A stretch of 27,234 nucleotides of DNA, counting the filler, from an uncultured virus (IMG/VR IMGVR_UViG_2049941000_000284) (lineage: Duplodnaviria; Heunggongvirae; Uroviricota; Caudoviricetes). It is 13 parts of one record of this genome, joined end to end, with 100 filler letters (N's around TTAATTAATTAA, not from the genome) between each part and the next. Parts side by side here need not be neighbours in the genome. Positions count along the whole stretch, not along the records: positions 1,159 to 3,710 come from IMGVR_UViG_2049941000_000284; 12 more parts are not named here. One strand, written 5' to 3'. Within the stretch, counting starts at the first letter, position 1; every line of letters begins with the position of its first letter. Under the pieces are notes generated by a model. The model made no database searches and had not been told where the DNA came from. It saw only the letters and a list, made by a program, of their open reading frames with translations. This document shows positions 1 to 6,708 of this stretch, piece after piece. The translations under genes and the position numbers were made by a program.

Positions 1-316
1 CTTCTTTTATTTCATCTTTGGAATATTCTGTCGGGAAATATGTAGGATCATATTTTTCAAGAATTTCTTTTGCTGCTTCAAAATTAGATAAGCCGTTTAA
101 TTTTGCATATAATGTTACAGCGTCACGACCTACCATGTCGTCGTCTGCATAATCATTGAATGCGCCTGTTGTAAGATTGATTTTGAAACTGCCTTTCTGT
201 TTGTCGTTTCTTAATGGATTTATTGCGCTCCATTGTCCGTTTTCTTCTTCACCGTCTGGAAGCCATAACTTTATATAATTGAGCCCAACTGAAGAAGCTC
301 TCTCGAATAAGTTCAC
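1..316 (-). CDS. DNA primase N-terminal domain (P4-alpha/CHC2-like, Cys-less); 3'-partial
   Basis: My translation from GTG at 316 (RBS GGGAGGA at 324-330): MNLFERASSVGLNYIKLWLPDGEEENGQWSAINPLRNDKQKGSFKINLTTGAFNDYADDDMVGRDAVTLYAKLNG. The W..NP.R.D...GSFKINL.TG...D...G.D...L pattern is typical of phage primase N-termini. Not in the ORF track. Confidence 0.75.
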   Translation of the reverse strand, partial: MNLFERASSVGLNYIKLWLPDGEEENGQWSAINPLRNDKQKGSFKINLTTGAFNDYADDDMVGRDAVTLYAKLNGLSNFEAAKEILEKYDPTYFPTEYSKDEIKE

Positions 317-323
317 GAATTAT

Positions 324-425
324 TCCTCCCATGAATTAAAAATAATATGCTCGTCTTTCCGAGCCGTCAAGTAGTCTTTCCTACTAGCCAATCATTTTAA
401 CCTTACGGGAGGAGCGGTTAAAATG
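324..425 (-). promoter_or_regulatory. Candidate structured 5' leader RNA of the primase gene
   Basis: 10-bp hairpin at 393-425 whose loop (UCCUCCCGU) is complementary to the RBS; two 5-bp hairpins with identical GAAAGA loops at 370-385 and 349-364. Confidence 0.55.
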
Positions 426-479
426 GAATGTCCTCNNNNNNNNNNNNNNNNNNNNNNNNNNNNNNNNNNNNNNNNNNNN

Positions 480-491
480 TTAATTAATTAA
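480..491. other. Artificial scaffold linker TTAATTAATTAA (first of 12 copies; others at 1103, 3755, 16804, 18450, 19453, 20907, 21527, 22625, 24314, 26029, 27020)
   Basis: Identical 12-mer with stop codons in all six frames, always flanked by about 44 N on each side. Confidence 0.97.
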
Positions 492-535
492 NNNNNNNNN
501 NNNNNNNNNNNNNNNNNNNNNNNNNNNNNNNNNNN

Positions 536-749
536 CAAATGGAACGCCAAAAACTGTTCCTTTATGCACTCTTTCAATCGGAGTGTCAACTTCTGTCCTA
601 ATTAGTGAAAACTTGTTTTTTGAAACTAAATCTCGAAAAGAGGCTATACTTAATTCAATTTCAACCCTATATCCTCTAATGTCCAAACCACTTGAACTAA
701 GTTCAAATTGTGCTTTTCTTATTTTTTCCAAAAGTTCTTCAAATGTCAT
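536..749 (-). CDS. Hypothetical phage protein, 3'-partial
   Basis: ORF MTFEELLEKIRKAQ... with GAGGAG RBS; overlaps the stop of the upstream gene. Confidence 0.65.
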
Positions 750-912
750 TTTCTTTTATCTCCTCAACCGTCACTTCAAAATAATCAATCGAATACTCTC
801 TAGGATATTCTTTATAAAAAGTTCTGACACTCACACTATATCTTCCTTCAACAAGTAAAGGTTTTATAAACTCCAAAACTCTGTCTATTGATGTAAACTT
901 GTATACCGTCAT
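739..912 (-). CDS. Hypothetical phage protein (MTVYKFTSIDRV...)
   Basis: AGGAG RBS before the ATG at 912 makes this start more likely than 960. Confidence 0.65.
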   Translation of the reverse strand: MTVYKFTSIDRVLEFIKPLLVEGRYSVSVRTFYKEYPREYSIDYFEVTVEEIKENDI

Positions 913-1159
913 TTTTCTTTTATCTCCTGTTCTTGGTATTCTTCTCCACAAACGTGCCATTCTTCCCCTTCGTTATAAGGCACTTCAATTTCTATCGATT
1001 TGAAAAAGTGTGTATAATCTTCATAAGATGTTTGTTTGTAACAAGTCAAAATTACTTTNNNNNNNNNNNNNNNNNNNNNNNNNNNNNNNNNNNNNNNNNN
1101 NNTTAATTAATTAANNNNNNNNNNNNNNNNNNNNNNNNNNNNNNNNNNNNNNNNNNNNG

Positions 1160-1627
1160 CAATTAATTCCAGTTACTCAGCTTTCCGAAGAAGAAAAAAA
1201 ACAGCGTTCAAGAAATGGCGGTGTAAAATCTGGTATCGCTAAACGAAAAATAAAAGCTGCTAAAATTACTCTAAATGACGTTATGGGACAATTTCTCACT
1301 GAACAGTTCCCACTTGAAGACAAAGACGGCCTTGTTGAGCGTATCGACGGTAAGGAACTTATCTTGCGTTTAATGCGCCAGGAACTAGCCAAAGGCGGTG
1401 ACACGGCTGTAAAACTTCTTAGAGTTATGAATGACATAATGCAGGGACAACCTAAAGTTATGCAGCAGATTAATATTTCTGCTCACGAACATAATTATCT
1501 TGACGCTGACAGAATGAAGCTCTTTGATGAAATTATGGGAAATAAACCGCAGGACGCAGAGCCTGAATCGAACGTTGTCGATGTCGAGTATGAAGTTAAG
1601 GACGTTGACGGCTCTAGTAATCAGTAA
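1160..1627 (+). CDS. Probable terminase small subunit, 5'-partial
   Basis: Frame is open from the gap: QLIPVTQLSEEEKKQRSRNGGVKSGIAKRK. The LIP...SEEE.K....GG.KSG..RR motif is common in phage TerS-like proteins; same strand as TerL. Confidence 0.6.
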   Translation, partial: QLIPVTQLSEEEKKQRSRNGGVKSGIAKRKIKAAKITLNDVMGQFLTEQFPLEDKDGLVERIDGKELILRLMRQELAKGGDTAVKLLRVMNDIMQGQPKVMQQINISAHEHNYLDADRMKLFDEIMGNKPQDAEPESNVVDVEYEVKDVDGSSNQ

Positions 1628-1633
1628 TATAAT
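1605..1633 (+). promoter_or_regulatory. Sigma70-type promoter
   Basis: TTGACG-17 bp-TATAAT. Confidence 0.7.
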
Positions 1634-1640
1634 AATGGGT

Positions 1641-1725
1641 AAAGGCAAGCCCGACGGGGTTGCGGTTATACTCGCAGTAACCGCACGCCTTTTCTTTATT
1701 TATGCGAGAAATAATTTGCGAGGTT
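1641..1725 (+). ncRNA. Candidate three-way-junction leader RNA with loop complementary to two downstream TGCGAG sites
   Basis: Outer stem AAAGGC/GCCTTT, hairpin AGCCC-GACG-GGGTT, hairpin TGCGGTTA-loop-TAACCGCA, then a U-tract. Loop CTCGCA is complementary to TGCGAG at 1703 and 1717 (the RBS). Confidence 0.55.
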
Positions 1726-1729
1726 ATTT

Positions 1730-1799
1730 ATGACTAAGATTTGCAGTAAATGTGGTGTTGAAAAAGAATTAAGTGAGTTTAATAAAAAACCGAGTTGTA
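1730..1799 (+). CDS. N-terminus of a Zn-finger protein, probably an HNH/EndoVII-type homing endonuclease; partial
   Basis: MTKICSKCGVEKELSEFNKKPSC matches the K.C.KC..EK.LSEF motif of phage endonuclease N-termini; GAGG RBS. Confidence 0.55.
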
Positions 1800-1810
1800 N
1801 NNNNNNNNNT

Positions 1811-2009
1811 ATTTTATCTCCCCTATCCTCTTCCCGCAGCAAGGACAATAATTTATCGGAAGCCATGTGTAATGCGTTGTTTTTCCTCTTGCATCACCGT
1901 TGACTTTTACTTCATCAACATACGCTGCCGTATATTCATAAGTTACTTTACAGCCGTCCTCGACTCTTTCTTTTTGAATGCTTTTAAGAAAATTATAGTT
2001 ATCGCAAAA
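1811..2009 (-). CDS. Small phage protein with C-terminal INYCPxCG Zn-ribbon, partial
   Basis: My translation: FCDNYNFLKSIQKERVEDG...WLPINYCPCCGKRIGEIK. Confidence 0.6.
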
Positions 2010-2020
2010 TNNNNNNNNNN

Positions 2021-2157
2021 TTCTTTATCAAGATTTCAATGATGATACTGATAAGATACATACTTCTAAACCCTGCGTCAGTCTTGTTGTCCTTCCTGAT
2101 TTCATTCATAAGTTTAAGCATACTTTCGCCAAACTCTTTGTCAGTTTCCTTATTCAT
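2021..2157 (-). CDS. Hypothetical protein, 3'-partial (MNKETDKEFGESMLKLM...)
   Basis: GGGGAG RBS; ATG overlaps the upstream stop; frame open to the gap. Confidence 0.5.
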
Positions 2158-2550
2158 CTTTCTCCCCCTTTACTAAGTCATACAAATAATTTCCTACATC
2201 GCGGGCAAGCTGTTCTATACAGTCACTTTCTGCTGTTCCNNNNNNNNNNNNNNNNNNNNNNNNNNNNNNNNNNNNNNNNNNNNNNNNNNNNNNNNNNNNN
2301 NNNNNNNNNNNNNNNNNNNNNNNNNNNNNNNNNNNNNNNNNNNNNNNNNNNNNNNNNNNNNNNNNNNNNNNNNNNNNNNNNNNNNNNNNNNNNNNNNNNN
2401 NNNNNNNNNNNNNNNNNNNNNNNNNNNNNNNNNNNNNNNNNNNNNNNNNNNNNNNNNNNNNNNNNNNNNNNNNNNNNNNNNNNNNNNNNNNNNNNNNNNN
2501 NNNNNNNNNNNGCCGTTCGGCGCTGTCCATTTACATTTTTTACCGCTCAT
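2150..2550 (-). CDS. Hypothetical protein, mostly in gap
   Basis: N-terminus MSGKKCKWTAPNG with AAGGAG RBS; C-terminus ...GNYLYDLVKGEKDE. Confidence 0.45.
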
Positions 2551-2586
2551 ATTTTTACGCTCCTTTATGTGTTATTTTAACATGTG

Positions 2587-3456
2587 TTATTTACGGCCAG
2601 TTGAACCCCAACCGNNNNNNNNNNNNNNNNNNNNNNNNNNNNNNNNNNNNNNNNNNNNNNNNNNNNNNNNNNNNNNNNNNNNNNNNNNNNNNNNNNNNNN
2701 NNNNNNNNNNNNNNNNNNNNNNNNNNNNNNNNNNNNNNNNNNNNNNNNNNNNNNNNNNNNNNNNNNNNNNNNNNNNNNNNNNNNNNNNNNNNNNNNNNNN
2801 NNNNNNNNNNNNNNNNNNNNNNNNNNNNNNNNNNNNNNNNNNNNNNNNNNNNNNNNNNNNNNNNNNNNNNNNNNNNNNNNNNNNNNNNNNNNNNNNNNNN
2901 NNNNNNNNNNNNNNNNNNNNNNNNNNNNNNNNNNNNNNNNNNNNNNNNNNNNNNNNNNNNNNNNNNNNNNNNNNNNNNNNNNNNNNNNNNNNNNNNNNNN
3001 NNNNNNNNNNNNNNNNNNNNNNNNNNNNNNNNNNNNNNNNNNNNNNNNNNNNNNNNNNNNNNNNNNNNNNNNNNNNNNNNNNNTATCACGCACTGCATAC
3101 ACATCTGCAAGCCATTCGTCATTATCGCCGTTATAACTATGGTCTATTATGCCGACGCTGTTTGTCAATAATATACCGTACTTTTTGAACGTCGAGCTTC
3201 TTGGTGCAATATGCGCTTCATATCCGTCAGGGAGTATCATTCCGACACCCAGTTTAATAATCGCGTCCTCGCCCGCTTTAATCGTTACCCCTCCAGGTAC
3301 CGCGCAACGGAGATCAATCCAGTCGCCTTTTTCAATTTTCTGTAACTTTTCAATGTCCTTATTAAAATATTTTATTTTAATTACCATACCTTCAGTCTCC
3401 TTCTGTTCCCAGTCGCCTGGAACTATACTTACTCCCTTGCCGTTTATCATTGTCAT
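2587..3456 (-). CDS. dut: Trimeric dUTPase (gapped)
   Basis: Motifs GDWIDL, APRSS, NSVGIIDHSYNG and C-terminal GWGSTG; GGAGG RBS. Confidence 0.92.
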   Translation of the reverse strand: MTMINGKGVSIVPGDWEQKETEGMVIKIKYFNKDIEKLQKIEKGDWIDLRCAVPGGVTIKAGEDAIIKLGVGMILPDGYEAHIAPRSSTFKKYGILLTNSVGIIDHSYNGDNDEWLADVYAVRDXXXXXXXXXXXXXXXXXXXXXXXXXXXXXXXXXXXXXXXXXXXXXXXXXXXXXXXXXXXXXXXXXXXXXXXXXXXXXXXXXXXXXXXXXXXXXXXXXXXXXXXXXXXXXXXXXXXXXXXXXXXXXXXXXXXXXXXXXXXXXXXXXXXXXXXXXXXXXGWGSTGRK

Positions 3457-3596
3457 TTTAATACCTCCTGTTTTATATAATAAGCGATTCCTTTTACACC
3501 AGCTTTATCACGAAGTTTTTCTACTTCCTGATTTGTAAAATATACGCTTATTGTCAATCCGGTTTTTCTGAATGTATCGTTTTTATGTACCTGCAT
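3453..3596 (-). CDS. Small basic protein, possibly a ribbon-helix-helix DNA binder; start uncertain
   Basis: MQVHKNDTFRKTGLTISVYFTNQEVEKLRDKAGVKGIAYYIKQEVLK shows an alternating beta strand then two helices; ATGA overlap with dut. Confidence 0.45.
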   Translation of the reverse strand: MQVHKNDTFRKTGLTISVYFTNQEVEKLRDKAGVKGIAYYIKQEVLK

Positions 3597-3812
3597 AAAA
3601 TTATACATATAATATTGCAATATTACATCAATCAAAGATGATGATGTAACTCTTTCGATCTCCTTAAAATCTTTTACTTCTCCCTTGATATTTACAAGTA
3701 TCTTTTCTTCNNNNNNNNNNNNNNNNNNNNNNNNNNNNNNNNNNNNNNNNNNNNTTAATTAATTAANNNNNNNNNNNNNNNNNNNNNNNNNNNNNNNNNN
3801 NNNNNNNNNNGC

Positions 3813-4897
3813 TATGAAATTGCAAAACCAGTTATTCCTCAAATATCGCGCGAACAATTCGCAAGCATGAGCCGTGAGCAACAGGATAAATACTTGTGGC
3901 TTTATAAGTCGCAAGTTGCACCTAAACTTGAAGTATTTCGGGAACATCACGCATATAAATTGGCTTTTGGCGGCCGCGGAGGAGCGAAGAGTTGGGGCTT
4001 TGCAAGTCTTTTAGCACAGAAGTTAAGTAAAGAAAAAAGGCTTTTGCTTTGTTGCCGAGAAGTACAGAACTCTATTGCAGATAGTTCAAAAAAAGTTCTT
4101 GAAGATACTATTACCCGATTAGGCTTACCTGGTTGGGTTTTTAAGCATGAAACACTTGAAAATACTATTACAGGCTCAACGGTAATTTTTAAGGGCTTGT
4201 TTAATATGCGTGCTGCAAACAGCTTGAAATCTTTGGAAGGTATAACGGACTGCTGGTGTGAAGAAGCTCAGTCTTTAAGTGCTGACAGTTTGAAATTATT
4301 ACTTCCTACTATCCGCCGTGACGGTGCGGAAATATGGGCATCATGGAATAGCGTTTCCCCTGATGATCCAATTGAAAAATTAAAAACACGAAAAGACGCT
4401 GTTATTGTTAAAATTAATTTTTATNNNNNNNNNNTCGTAAAGGCTTACAGGTATTGTCGCAAAAAGAATATAAACATTTAGACGGTGTACACCTTGCAGA
4501 TGAGTACGAAAAATTAGTTGAATACAGAAAAGATGTACATACAAAAATAGACGGTGGTGGTTGTGGTGCCAGTGTTATAGATGTCTTAAAATCTCGCGGT
4601 TATAGAAATATTACTGAAGTCAATTTTGGTGAAAAGGCTATGGACTCGAATAAATACGATAGCGCAGCAAGTGAGATGTGGTTCAGTCTTGATATAGCGA
4701 ATATCGGTATTCCTGACGACGACGAGCTTCTGCAACAGTTGTCAGACCGCAGATATTCATATAATAATAAAACGCAGAAAGTAGTCGAAAAGAAAGACGA
4801 CTATAAAAAAAGGCATGGCGGAAAATCACCGGATAAAGCCGACAGTCTTTTATTGTGTTTCTACGAGAAGCACAGACCGAAAATTGCACTTTATTAA
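3813..4897 (+). CDS. terL: Terminase large subunit (PBSX/Sf6-like), 5'-partial and gapped
   Basis: Walker A GGRGGAKS, CCREVQNSIADS, KSLEG..CWCEEAQ, PTIRR; nuclease domain ending KSPDKADSL. Confidence 0.93.
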
Positions 4898-4916
4898 ACA
4901 AAAGGAGTATACAAAA

Positions 4917-5163
4917 ATGAAAAGAATCAGAAACAAAGGTGAAGATTTAGCAGAAATGCTAGCTGAAATNNNNNNNNNNGAAAATCGGTGATGAGCCGAT
5001 ATTTGACGCAGTGAACAGTTACGAGATCACTCGTTGCCCGGGCGGTTTTATTTACAAGAACGAATATGCAGGCTTGTGTTTTGTTCCGGAAGCAAATACT
5101 GGTGTAGGTGTGATTAAGCACAGTGTCGCAAAGACTGAACCTAAAAAAATGGTGACAAAATAA
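4917..5163 (+). CDS. Hypothetical protein (gapped)
   Basis: AAGGAG RBS, MKRIRNKGEDLAEMLAE..., frame open after the gap to a TAATG overlap with the methyltransferase. Confidence 0.55.
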
Positions 5164-6362
5164 TGAGGTATGGGCTCGGATACTGTGGAAGTAAAAACGG
5201 CATAGCGGAATGGGTTTGTGATTATATTCCGAACAGCCGTAATTTTTACGATTTATTTGCCGGCGGTTGCGCTATAACCCATTGCTCGATGTTACACAAG
5301 AAGTCGGAAAATTATCTGATAAATGACATAAGCGATGTAGTAGAATTGTTCTATGACGCTGTTATGGGAAAATATAAAAATGAAACCCGGTGGATAAGTC
5401 GGGAAGATTTTTATAATTTTAAAGATAAAGACCCATATATTCGTTATTGCTGGAGTTTTGGTAACCGTGGCCTAGAATATATGTACAGCCTTGAGGTTGN
5501 NNNNNNNNNNNNNNNNNNNNNNNNNNNNNNNNNNNNNNNNNNNNNNNNNNNNNNNNNNNNNNNNNNNNNNNNNNNNNNNNNNNNNNNNNNNNNNNNNNNN
5601 NNNNNNNNNNNNNNNNNNNNNNNNNNNNNNNNNNNNNNNNNNNNNNNNNNNNNNNNNNNNNNNNNNNNNNNNNNNNNNNNNNNNNNNNNNNNNNNNNNNN
5701 NNNNNNNNNNNNNNNNNNNNNNNNNNNNNNNNNNNNNNNNNNNNNNNNNNNNNNNNNNNNNNNNNNNNNNNNNNNNNNNNNNNNNNNNNNNNNNNNNNNN
5801 NNNNNNNNNNNNNNNNNNNNNNNNNNNNNNNNNNNNNNNNNNNNNNNNNNNNNNNNNNNNNNNNNNNGCTTGCAGGATCTTCTACAAAATCTAGAAAGTC
5901 TAGAAAGGCTACAAAGTCTAGAAAGGCTAGAAAGGCTAGAAAAGCTAGAAAAGCTAGAAAAGCTAGAAAGGCTTACACTTTCCGTTGGCTCATACAAAGA
6001 CGTGAAGATAAAACCTGACTCGGTGATTTATTGTGATATTCCTTATCGCGGTACGGCTGAATATATCGGCGGGGTTTATTATGATGAGGTTNNNNNNNNN
6101 NTACTGCAAAGAAATCCTGCATAGTTCGCTTGATGTGTTAGAGTTGCAGAAGAACCTGACTGAACGAATTGAGCGTAATTCTGAAGAACTTCGTAACTAT
6201 TTACTTACGGGGCTTAAAAACGCGGGTAAACGGTCGAGTGAAGTTGATAAATACCTAGGTACTAACGGCATGGCCGGTCATTACTTCGGTAAAAGTCAGT
6301 GGGAGTTCCCGACTCGTGAGGTGTATATAAAGCTTCAGAGTTTCCTTGACTTACCGATTGAA
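5163..6362 (+). CDS. DNA adenine methyltransferase, D12/Dam class (gapped; 6102-6362 is probably an internal piece)
   Basis: Y.GSK, motif I DLFAGG, INDI, catalytic motif IV VIYCDIPY; fragment MAGHYFGKSQWEFPT resembles an insert seen in phage MTases. Confidence 0.85.
5882..5971 (+). repeat. Ten tandem 9-bp units CTA(G/C)AAA(A/G)(G/T) encoding L(E/Q)(S/R/K/N)
   Basis: ctacaaaat ctagaaagt ctagaaagg ctacaaagt ctagaaagg ctagaaagg ctagaaaag x3 ctagaaagg. Confidence 0.95.
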
Positions 6363-6679: not shown

Positions 6680-6708
6680 ATAGTACAAGATTTTTGACAA
6701 ATAAGCAA
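6680..6708 (-). promoter_or_regulatory. Sigma70-type promoter for the candidate sRNA
   Basis: TTGCTT-17 bp-TACTAT on the minus strand. Confidence 0.5.

Follow-up and report, generated by a model that had tools for sequence, protein, structure and literature searches.

Homing-endonuclease genes (HEGs) need near silence to persist between essential, translationally coupled packaging genes. To our knowledge, the silencing solutions known for them come almost entirely from T4-like phages. Phage HEGs, as described in PMC2988022, have promoters of their own, terminators near their 5′ ends, and hairpins that sequester the ribosome-binding site (RBS). T4 I-TevI and segB, and mobE of Aeh1 and T4, are treated there as selfish nucleases between or within essential genes, each with its own promoter, a 5′ terminator, and an RBS hairpin (PMC2988022). 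Here we describe an element from an uncultured virus of the Caudoviricetes (IMG/VR IMGVR_UViG_2049941000_000284), in a stretch of 27,234 nucleotides (nt), filler included, that we call the window. Positions 1605 to 1752 appear to be a conserved 5′ control region that would act as a layered brake on a free-standing homing-endonuclease cassette of the HNH/endonuclease VII type, located at the terS-terL junction. We put the probability of this reading at about 0.5.

Regulatory RNAs of other systems also bear on this locus. The c4 antisense RNA has one target site at an RBS, and the ends of the c4 and CI RNAs come from RNase P processing. In the type III toxin-antitoxin (ToxIN-like) layout, a promoter is followed by a structured RNA, a leaky terminator, and the open reading frame (ORF) of a nuclease-type toxin. 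P1/P7 c4 and P4 CI are small leader RNAs whose loops are complementary to repeated sites on the same transcript (for P4, see PMC4825925). The account in PMC4825925 also covers IsrK of the Gifsy-1 prophage. There, transcription from a single promoter either terminates early as a short RNA or reads through into an mRNA that is translationally inactive, and the short form acts on the long one, tuning a toxic product. IsrK was reported as the first RNA acting on its own read-through transcript. An earlier note on the window had proposed a self-silencing cassette of the c4 and CI kind.

A metagenome scan with a terS alignment gave five loci, L001 to L005, and the leader copies compared below are those of the window and L002 to L004. 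The element has the following features, all on the plus strand.

1605..1633, sigma-70-type promoter TTGACG-17-TATAAT (−35 at 1605-1610, −10 at 1628-1633), agreeing with 11/12 consensus positions
1641-1646/1687-1692, outer stem of a three-way junction (3WJ); the fold spans 1641..1692, 52 nt
1648-1652/1657-1661, hairpin 1 of the 3WJ, with the loop GACG
1662-1669/1677-1684, hairpin 2 of the 3WJ, with a 7-nt loop
1670..1676, open loop ACUCGCA of hairpin 2, including CUCG, a YUNR-type motif; invariant in 4/4 copies
1690..1701, U-rich tract leaving the outer stem, a candidate intrinsic terminator/attenuator; U-rich in 4/4 copies and longer in L003
1703..1708, UGCGAG site 1, exact complement of CTCGCA at 1671-1676; invariant in 4/4 copies
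1717..1722, UGCGAG site 2, exact complement of the same CTCGCA, overlapping the Shine-Dalgarno (SD) sequence GAGG at 1720-1723; invariant in 4/4 copies
1709-1716/1722-1729, RBS hairpin with the apical loop UGCGA at 1717-1721; paired in 4/4 copies
1697-1708/1740-1752, predicted long stem of 12 pairs (RNAalifold), whose 3′ strand is ORF codons 4-8 and which encloses the SD and the AUG
1730..1799, start of the Zn-ribbon/nuclease ORF (MTKICSKCG...), first 23 codons

The loci L002 to L004 carry the promoter, the RNA, both UGCGAG sites, and the ORF start after a related terS, whereas L005 has no ORF or leader segment between terS and terL. L001 ends within terS. Because the leader-nuclease unit is present in the window and in L002 to L004 and absent from L005, we regard it as an insertion at a fixed site. 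A free-standing homing-endonuclease gene would be expected to come and go in this way at one fixed spot between conserved genes. The earlier note had placed the insertion after TerS, and L005, where the unit is missing and terS and terL overlap as TAATG, bears this out. It had also suggested looking for homologous leaders; these were found in three metagenome contigs, and the promoter, 3WJ, U-tract, three hexamers, and RBS hairpin are kept in 4/4 cassette-bearing loci. Over the 3WJ, identity to the window is 52/52 in L002, 48/52 in L003, and 47/53 in L004; over segment 1693-1729 it is 35/37, 32/39, and 35/37, in the same order. DNA identity over the whole terS match is 85%, 76%, and 73%. The phage lineage was found in runs labelled bovine gut. 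RNA-library contigs span 1585-1748 and 1651-1786, but DNA carry-over is possible, so that no claim on expression and no ranking of habitats is drawn from them.

The 3WJ has a minimum free energy (MFE) of −24.0 kcal/mol (z = −3.1), a stability that 1 of 200 shuffles equals. Homologues folded alone give the same junction, with z-scores of −3.3, −2.8, and −2.2. None of the 19 pairs of the 3WJ is lost in any of the four copies. Pair 1668/1678 changes from A-U to C-G, on both sides, and one-sided changes at positions 1679 and 1684 each give a G-U pair. In the RBS hairpin, pair 1710/1728 changes from A-U to U-A in L002 to L004, with both changes seen in all four runs compared. When the 27 pairs of the two structures were scored in the four copies, 108/108 cells were paired and none was broken; two pairs carry changes in both partners and two in a single partner (both to G-U). 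Slid controls for this count were 36 to 54% paired. Thirteen columns are variable, six of them in 3WJ or RBS-hairpin stems and all pairing-neutral, and the other seven in junctions or the U-tract. RNAalifold independently recovered the 3WJ and the RBS hairpin from the four-copy alignment. Two outer-stem pairs of L004 look broken there because a 1-nt insertion is placed differently; they are paired in alignment A2. The element is real and conserved, and is a new RNA motif that heads a mobile nuclease cassette.

The outer stem GGC/GCC leads into UUUUCUUUAUUU, and the stem is branched. A terminator scan flagged 1661-1685 plus the tail as terminator-like. We infer that transcription would terminate at the leader U-tract. 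A coding reading of the RNA (ORF 1524-1733) was ruled out by the 1-nt (L004) and 2-nt (L003) insertions inside it.

Among 16 promoter-like sites in positions 1-6000, TTGACG-17-TATAAT ranks best. The whole window holds four sites matching at least 11/12 positions, and 200 shuffles hold 1.1 on average; on these counts, chance could account for the promoter match taken by itself. All four copies have the same −10 and a 17-nt spacer of varying sequence; their −35 reads TTGACG or TTGATG. The transcription start is predicted near 1639-1641. The earlier note was right in every coordinate for the promoter (11/12 match), the three-stem RNA (z = −3.1), and the U-rich tract. In the window, the promoter overlaps the terS stop TAA at 1625-1627. 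In L003 and L004, 16 nt of the terS 3′ end recur exactly, ahead of the RNA, and the second copy bears the −35 and −10.

L003 ~675-735 and L004 ~3443-3503, duplicated terS 3′ end, left border of the cassette

Judged from these junctions, the duplicate marks a recombination joint at the left border of the cassette. Since the promoter is kept in L003 and L004 in a non-coding duplicate, uncoupled from terS coding, we consider it part of the cassette. Further promoter-like sites with an 11-12/12 match lie at 6694, 8657 (+), and 18040 (−), one of them just upstream of the portal gene. Ahead of the minus-strand ORF 2-316, a promoter-like TTGACG-17-TATTAT at 342-370 on the same strand shares positions with a short terminator-like hairpin.

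At the start region, the SD lies 6 nt upstream of ATG 1730. The earlier note had claimed that the loop CUCGCA is complementary to TGCGAG at 1703-1708 and 1717-1722 and that the second site overlaps the GAGG RBS; the match is exact, and the overlap was confirmed. On both strands, the 27-kb window holds 4 copies of the hexamer, versus 7.5 expected, and 3/4 lie within 52 bases here. In 200,000 shuffles of 1693-1760, a post-hoc test, at least one loop complement appeared in 1.1% and at least two in 0.3%. The hairpin 2 loop has an unpaired probability of 0.93-1.0 and costs 0.04 kcal/mol to open. Its 6-bp duplexes are predicted at −10.4 kcal/mol for site 2 and −9.7 for site 1, with site opening costs of 2.4-3.9. 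Because site 2 occupies the apical loop of the RBS hairpin, its contact with the RNA would be loop-loop. YUNR-type motifs speed antisense pairing, according to the part of the antisense literature covered in PMC6562991. No extension of the loop-site duplex past 6 bp is conserved across the copies. Pairing of the loop with UGCGAG, and its repressive sign, is what we infer from these matches. In the RNAalifold model of the long stem, site 1 lies opposite 1740-1745, and wobble-keeping changes occur at 1744, 1749, and 1750.

Other sequence features were seen in the same region. The 9-mer TTATTTATG occurs twice, at 1696-1704 and 1724-1732. An upstream ORF at 1702-1737 (ATG 1702, 11 codons, no SD) ends in a TAA at 1735-1737 and overlaps the main start, and its frame is kept in L002 to L004. 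The sequence AAATAA at 1709-1714 can pair with 1696-1701 or 1724-1729, giving mutually exclusive hairpins that each loop out one UGCGAG; in L002 to L004, full pairing is found only for the hairpin with 1724-1729.

The ORFs of L002 to L004 start with MTKICSKCG or MTKICSRCK. Their fragments, together with the homologous P0081 and P0082 described next, match phrog_1035, 2340, 2255, and 2633, which are annotated as endonuclease VII or HNH, and the ORF starts match phrog_1035 with E values of 6e-14 to 3e-10. Two full-length proteins, P0081 (222 amino acids [aa]) and P0082 (239 aa), are alike in their first ~20 residues and have different bodies. P0082 shares the first 19 residues read in L003 and matches phrog_1035 (E 8.7e-25) over residues 91-222, its C-terminal part. 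Relatives of P0082, at less than 60% identity, occur in 136 GenBank phage records, and the annotated relatives among the 25 matches listed are mostly endonuclease VII or HNH endonuclease. Against Pfam, the nuclease ORFs gave nothing at family thresholds. In contigs of other samples, the ORF continues in at least four different ways after 1748-1797 (loose ends). Because these contigs and the P0081 and P0082 bodies diverge after the start, several nuclease bodies share one leader and N terminus. By these family matches, the ORFs behind the leader in L002 to L004 belong to HNH/endonuclease VII phage families, in line with the endonuclease-like gene of the earlier note. Distant HNH relatives in two uncultured-phage records (L012 ~440-500, L013 ~440-500) carry a simple terminator hairpin immediately before the ORF.

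We propose the following working of the layered brake. The sigma-70-type promoter over the last terS codons would start an RNA at the foot of the 52-nt 3WJ. The closing stem of the 3WJ and the U-tract would serve as a leader terminator/attenuator, so that most transcripts would stop as a 55-60-nt RNA. In read-through and terS-derived transcripts, the AU-rich start region would fold on itself as the RBS hairpin (1709-1729), possibly enclosed by the longer stem 1697-1708/1740-1752. The loop ACUCGCA could form six Watson-Crick pairs with UGCGAG, in cis or through the short RNA in trans, and this contact at the SD would be a third layer holding nuclease translation very low. Self-silencing of the nuclease is thus plausible. 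A more specific proposal, which we offer tentatively, is a mobile cassette with its own riboregulator, a new family of ~57-nt 3WJ RNA that would arise from the promoter and leader terminator of the cassette and whose YUNR-type loop would kiss UGCGAG on the read-through mRNA and set nuclease output. The leader and first codons may also be a portable control module for several HNH bodies at the terS-terL junction; we hold this jointly with the riboregulator proposal and with the same reserve.

The locus resembles the T4 type in that the SD is sequestered in a conserved hairpin (4/4 copies; weak, −2.3 kcal/mol). However, in the T4 type the relieving late promoter lies inside the hairpin and late transcripts lack its 5′ arm, whereas here the conserved promoter is upstream of everything, 100 nt away. 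The 5′ arm of the RBS hairpin reads TATAAT in L002 to L004 and AATAAT in the window; no −35 was found there by eye (no scan was made), and a start there would be inside the SD. The locus differs from the T4 type further in its putative branched 3WJ terminator at the transcript 5′ end and in a loop complementary to two downstream sites. The leader has no sequence relation to T4-type homing-endonuclease controls.

Compared with c4 and CI, the locus has one 6-nt loop sequence, not two, and an RNA end that would come from promoter and terminator. By eye, no complement of the GACG loop, which would give a second loop-target pair as in c4, was found in 1693-1799. The gene to be controlled here is a putative homing nuclease, and not an immunity or antirepressor gene. 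CI, as described in PMC4825925, acts by termination at flanking sites, whereas both sites here follow the U-tract. When the whole window was compared with Rfam (cmscan, E up to 10), four weak matches came up, none of them in 1605-1799. With no Rfam match in the region, the element falls outside the c4 and c4-a1b1 families, against which the earlier note had suggested a search. Of its c4/CI-like self-silencing, the upstream same-strand RNA and the repeated complementary sites, one at the RBS, stand; the structure could equally be a leader terminator. Any likeness of the contact to P1 c4 and P4 CI would be in principle only.

IsrK activates, where the contact here would, in our reading, repress, and its sequence, fold, and target gene are unrelated; the two isoforms of the present locus are predicted ones. 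The proposed order of parts is like that of ToxIN-like systems, but a tandem-repeat search of the window found 0 arrays, the nuclease probably belongs to an HNH-type DNase family and not to the ToxN RNases, and nothing here points to RNA-protein neutralisation.

Several observations weigh against the layered brake. A branched stem is atypical for a terminator, and all 17 of the sequencing runs listed are contigs, which are incapable of showing transcript ends. The RBS hairpin alone is weak (−2.3 kcal/mol), the 123-nt fold of the start region has a z-score of −0.95, single-sequence MFE shapes differ among homologues, and the long stem loses two pairs in L003. All 18/18 hexamer positions are invariant in the four copies, which leaves the loop-site pairing without comparative support. 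With 13 variable columns in 1641-1729, the chance of none falling in the 18 hexamer positions is estimated at ~6%, which is not decisive. The shuffle control for the pair score is weak (21/500 shuffles reach the observed score). There are only four copies, all close relatives, so that each compensatory pair is possibly one event, and the high identity with sharp borders may reflect recent recombination and not selection. In the window, the ORF is cut at 23 codons by a 10-N run at 1800-1809 with a minus-strand gene beyond, and the gene order past that run differs from that of L001.

A plain terminator, serving both terS and the cassette promoter and standing next to an unrelated RBS hairpin, might account for the same features. 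The nuclease would then come from rare read-through, and the hexamers would have no RNA-RNA role. The outer stem running into the U-tract and the terminator-like site in the scan agree with this, as do the simple hairpins before distant HNH ORFs in two uncultured-phage records, the lack of co-variation between loop and sites, and the terminators at HEG 5′ ends described in PMC2988022. However, ending terS transcripts hardly explains, by itself, why a near-consensus promoter is conserved right before the terminator, and genomes of the L005 type have no need of one between terS and terL. Three of the four hexamers of the window are gathered here, with two hairpin loops holding one each, and the shuffles gave two or more loop complements in just 0.3%. 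We consider a plain terminator rather unlikely. The contact could also open the start site rather than close it, since RNAalifold puts site 1 in a stem with codons 4-8. In such an IsrK-like activation, the short RNA or the cis loop would bind site 1, displace the codon 4-8 strand, and free the start site, turning the nuclease on. This is a live rival because site 1 may belong to an inhibitory stem, but binding at site 2, which covers part of the SD, would be expected to repress. In the stem of site 1, G-U pairs are kept through the changes at 1744, 1749, and 1750, and the loop would form six Watson-Crick pairs with site 1, where the ORF strand uses three G-U pairs. Against this, the long stem loses two pairs in L003 and is missing from several single-sequence MFE folds. 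The short IsrK, which activates its own read-through mRNA in the account of PMC4825925, is a precedent. On balance, we find activation improbable.

The hexamers might instead be protein-binding sites in DNA or RNA, for example for autorepression by the nuclease through its conserved N-terminal Zn-ribbon, with the hairpins incidental. There are three copies, two direct and one inverted, within 52 bp, and the leader and first ~20 codons go as a unit with different nuclease bodies; I-TevI autorepression at an operator, described in PMC2988022, is a precedent. Yet the copies are downstream of the promoter with no overlap, and the 14-bp distance between the direct repeats puts them out of helical phase. 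The inverted copy lies exactly in the loop of a compensated hairpin and one direct copy in another loop, which argues for the RNA level, and the nuclease bodies, likely the specificity domains, differ while the hexamers do not. A role as protein sites is in our view very unlikely. We give just as little weight to the idea that the leader has no regulatory function, its near-identity being a footprint that recent gene conversion or recombination left at the edge of a mobile nuclease gene, and its folds mere by-products. The 6/6 stem substitutions that keep pairing, with the other seven variable columns outside the stems, are at odds with a footprint, and so are promoter hexamers that are kept while the spacer varies and fold z-scores of −2.2 to −3.3 in 4/4 copies. 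It would nevertheless explain the sharp identity borders on both sides of the leader and the terS 3′ duplicate of L003 and L004 as a recombination joint, and nuclease genes are reported at phage exchange boundaries in the phages dealt with in PMC10448857.

Further searches were made for relatives of the element. Positions 1159-1799 had no blastn match, and terS no tblastn match, among GenBank phages. In IMG/VR, scans with terS found no relative, and scans with four leader patterns found 0, 2, 3, and 0 stretches, all five being unrelated coding sequence. Among the species-representative genomes, the leader pattern matched 0 times and terS had no relative. Covariance model R1 picked up no further copy, either in the window or in L001 to L005 (best other match E 0.02 over 53 nt), and nothing upstream of three distant HNH relatives; a weak, chance-level R1 match lies at window positions 299-351. 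No tRNA or tmRNA was found.

An HK97-type HNH packaging accessory would be expected beside the terminase genes throughout the lineage. Here, L005 has no ORF between terS and terL, so the ORF is not always present, and terL belongs to Terminase_3. A cos or pac site, or an obligatory packaging HNH, was ruled out because the segment is absent in L005.

The upstream neighbour of the element is the following gene.

1160..1627, plus strand, terS-like ORF (P0001), visible C-terminal 155 codons with the N terminus masked; stop TAA at 1625-1627

P0001 has 79 metagenome homologues of ~160 aa each. It matched no Pfam family and, in PHROGs, only phrog_2412, weakly and with function unknown. It is named terS by position, given these results and the overlap of the stop with the terL start in L005. 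The window (G+C 38.6%, 4,593 bases masked as N) also encodes terL (Terminase_3), a D12 methylase, the portal, a prohead protease, an HK97-type capsid, and a minus-strand dUTPase. Runs of 10 N distort true length: the alignment of terL to L005 shifts by ~220 nt across 4425-4434, and the frame changes. The dUTPase block (2513-3710, minus strand) separates the leader from terL in the window, but in L001 (146-964), a contig 96-97% identical, its place is upstream of terS. From these alignments, its placement reflects either a rearrangement or a doubtful join at the N-run. In the methylase region, positions 5870-6000 encode a low-complexity repeat of the LERLEKLEK type, at an ORF start beside a masked stretch.

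An uncultured phage lineage shows another layout for the control of a putative homing nuclease: a promoter, a putative branched terminator RNA, a folded start site, and a loop that matches two sites in the mRNA it heads. Should the contact prove real, the RNA would join those that act on their own read-through transcript, as the first of them linked to a selfish nuclease, and it would form a compact, portable off-switch. If not, the locus would still be a clean example of a conserved regulatory head common to swapped nuclease bodies.

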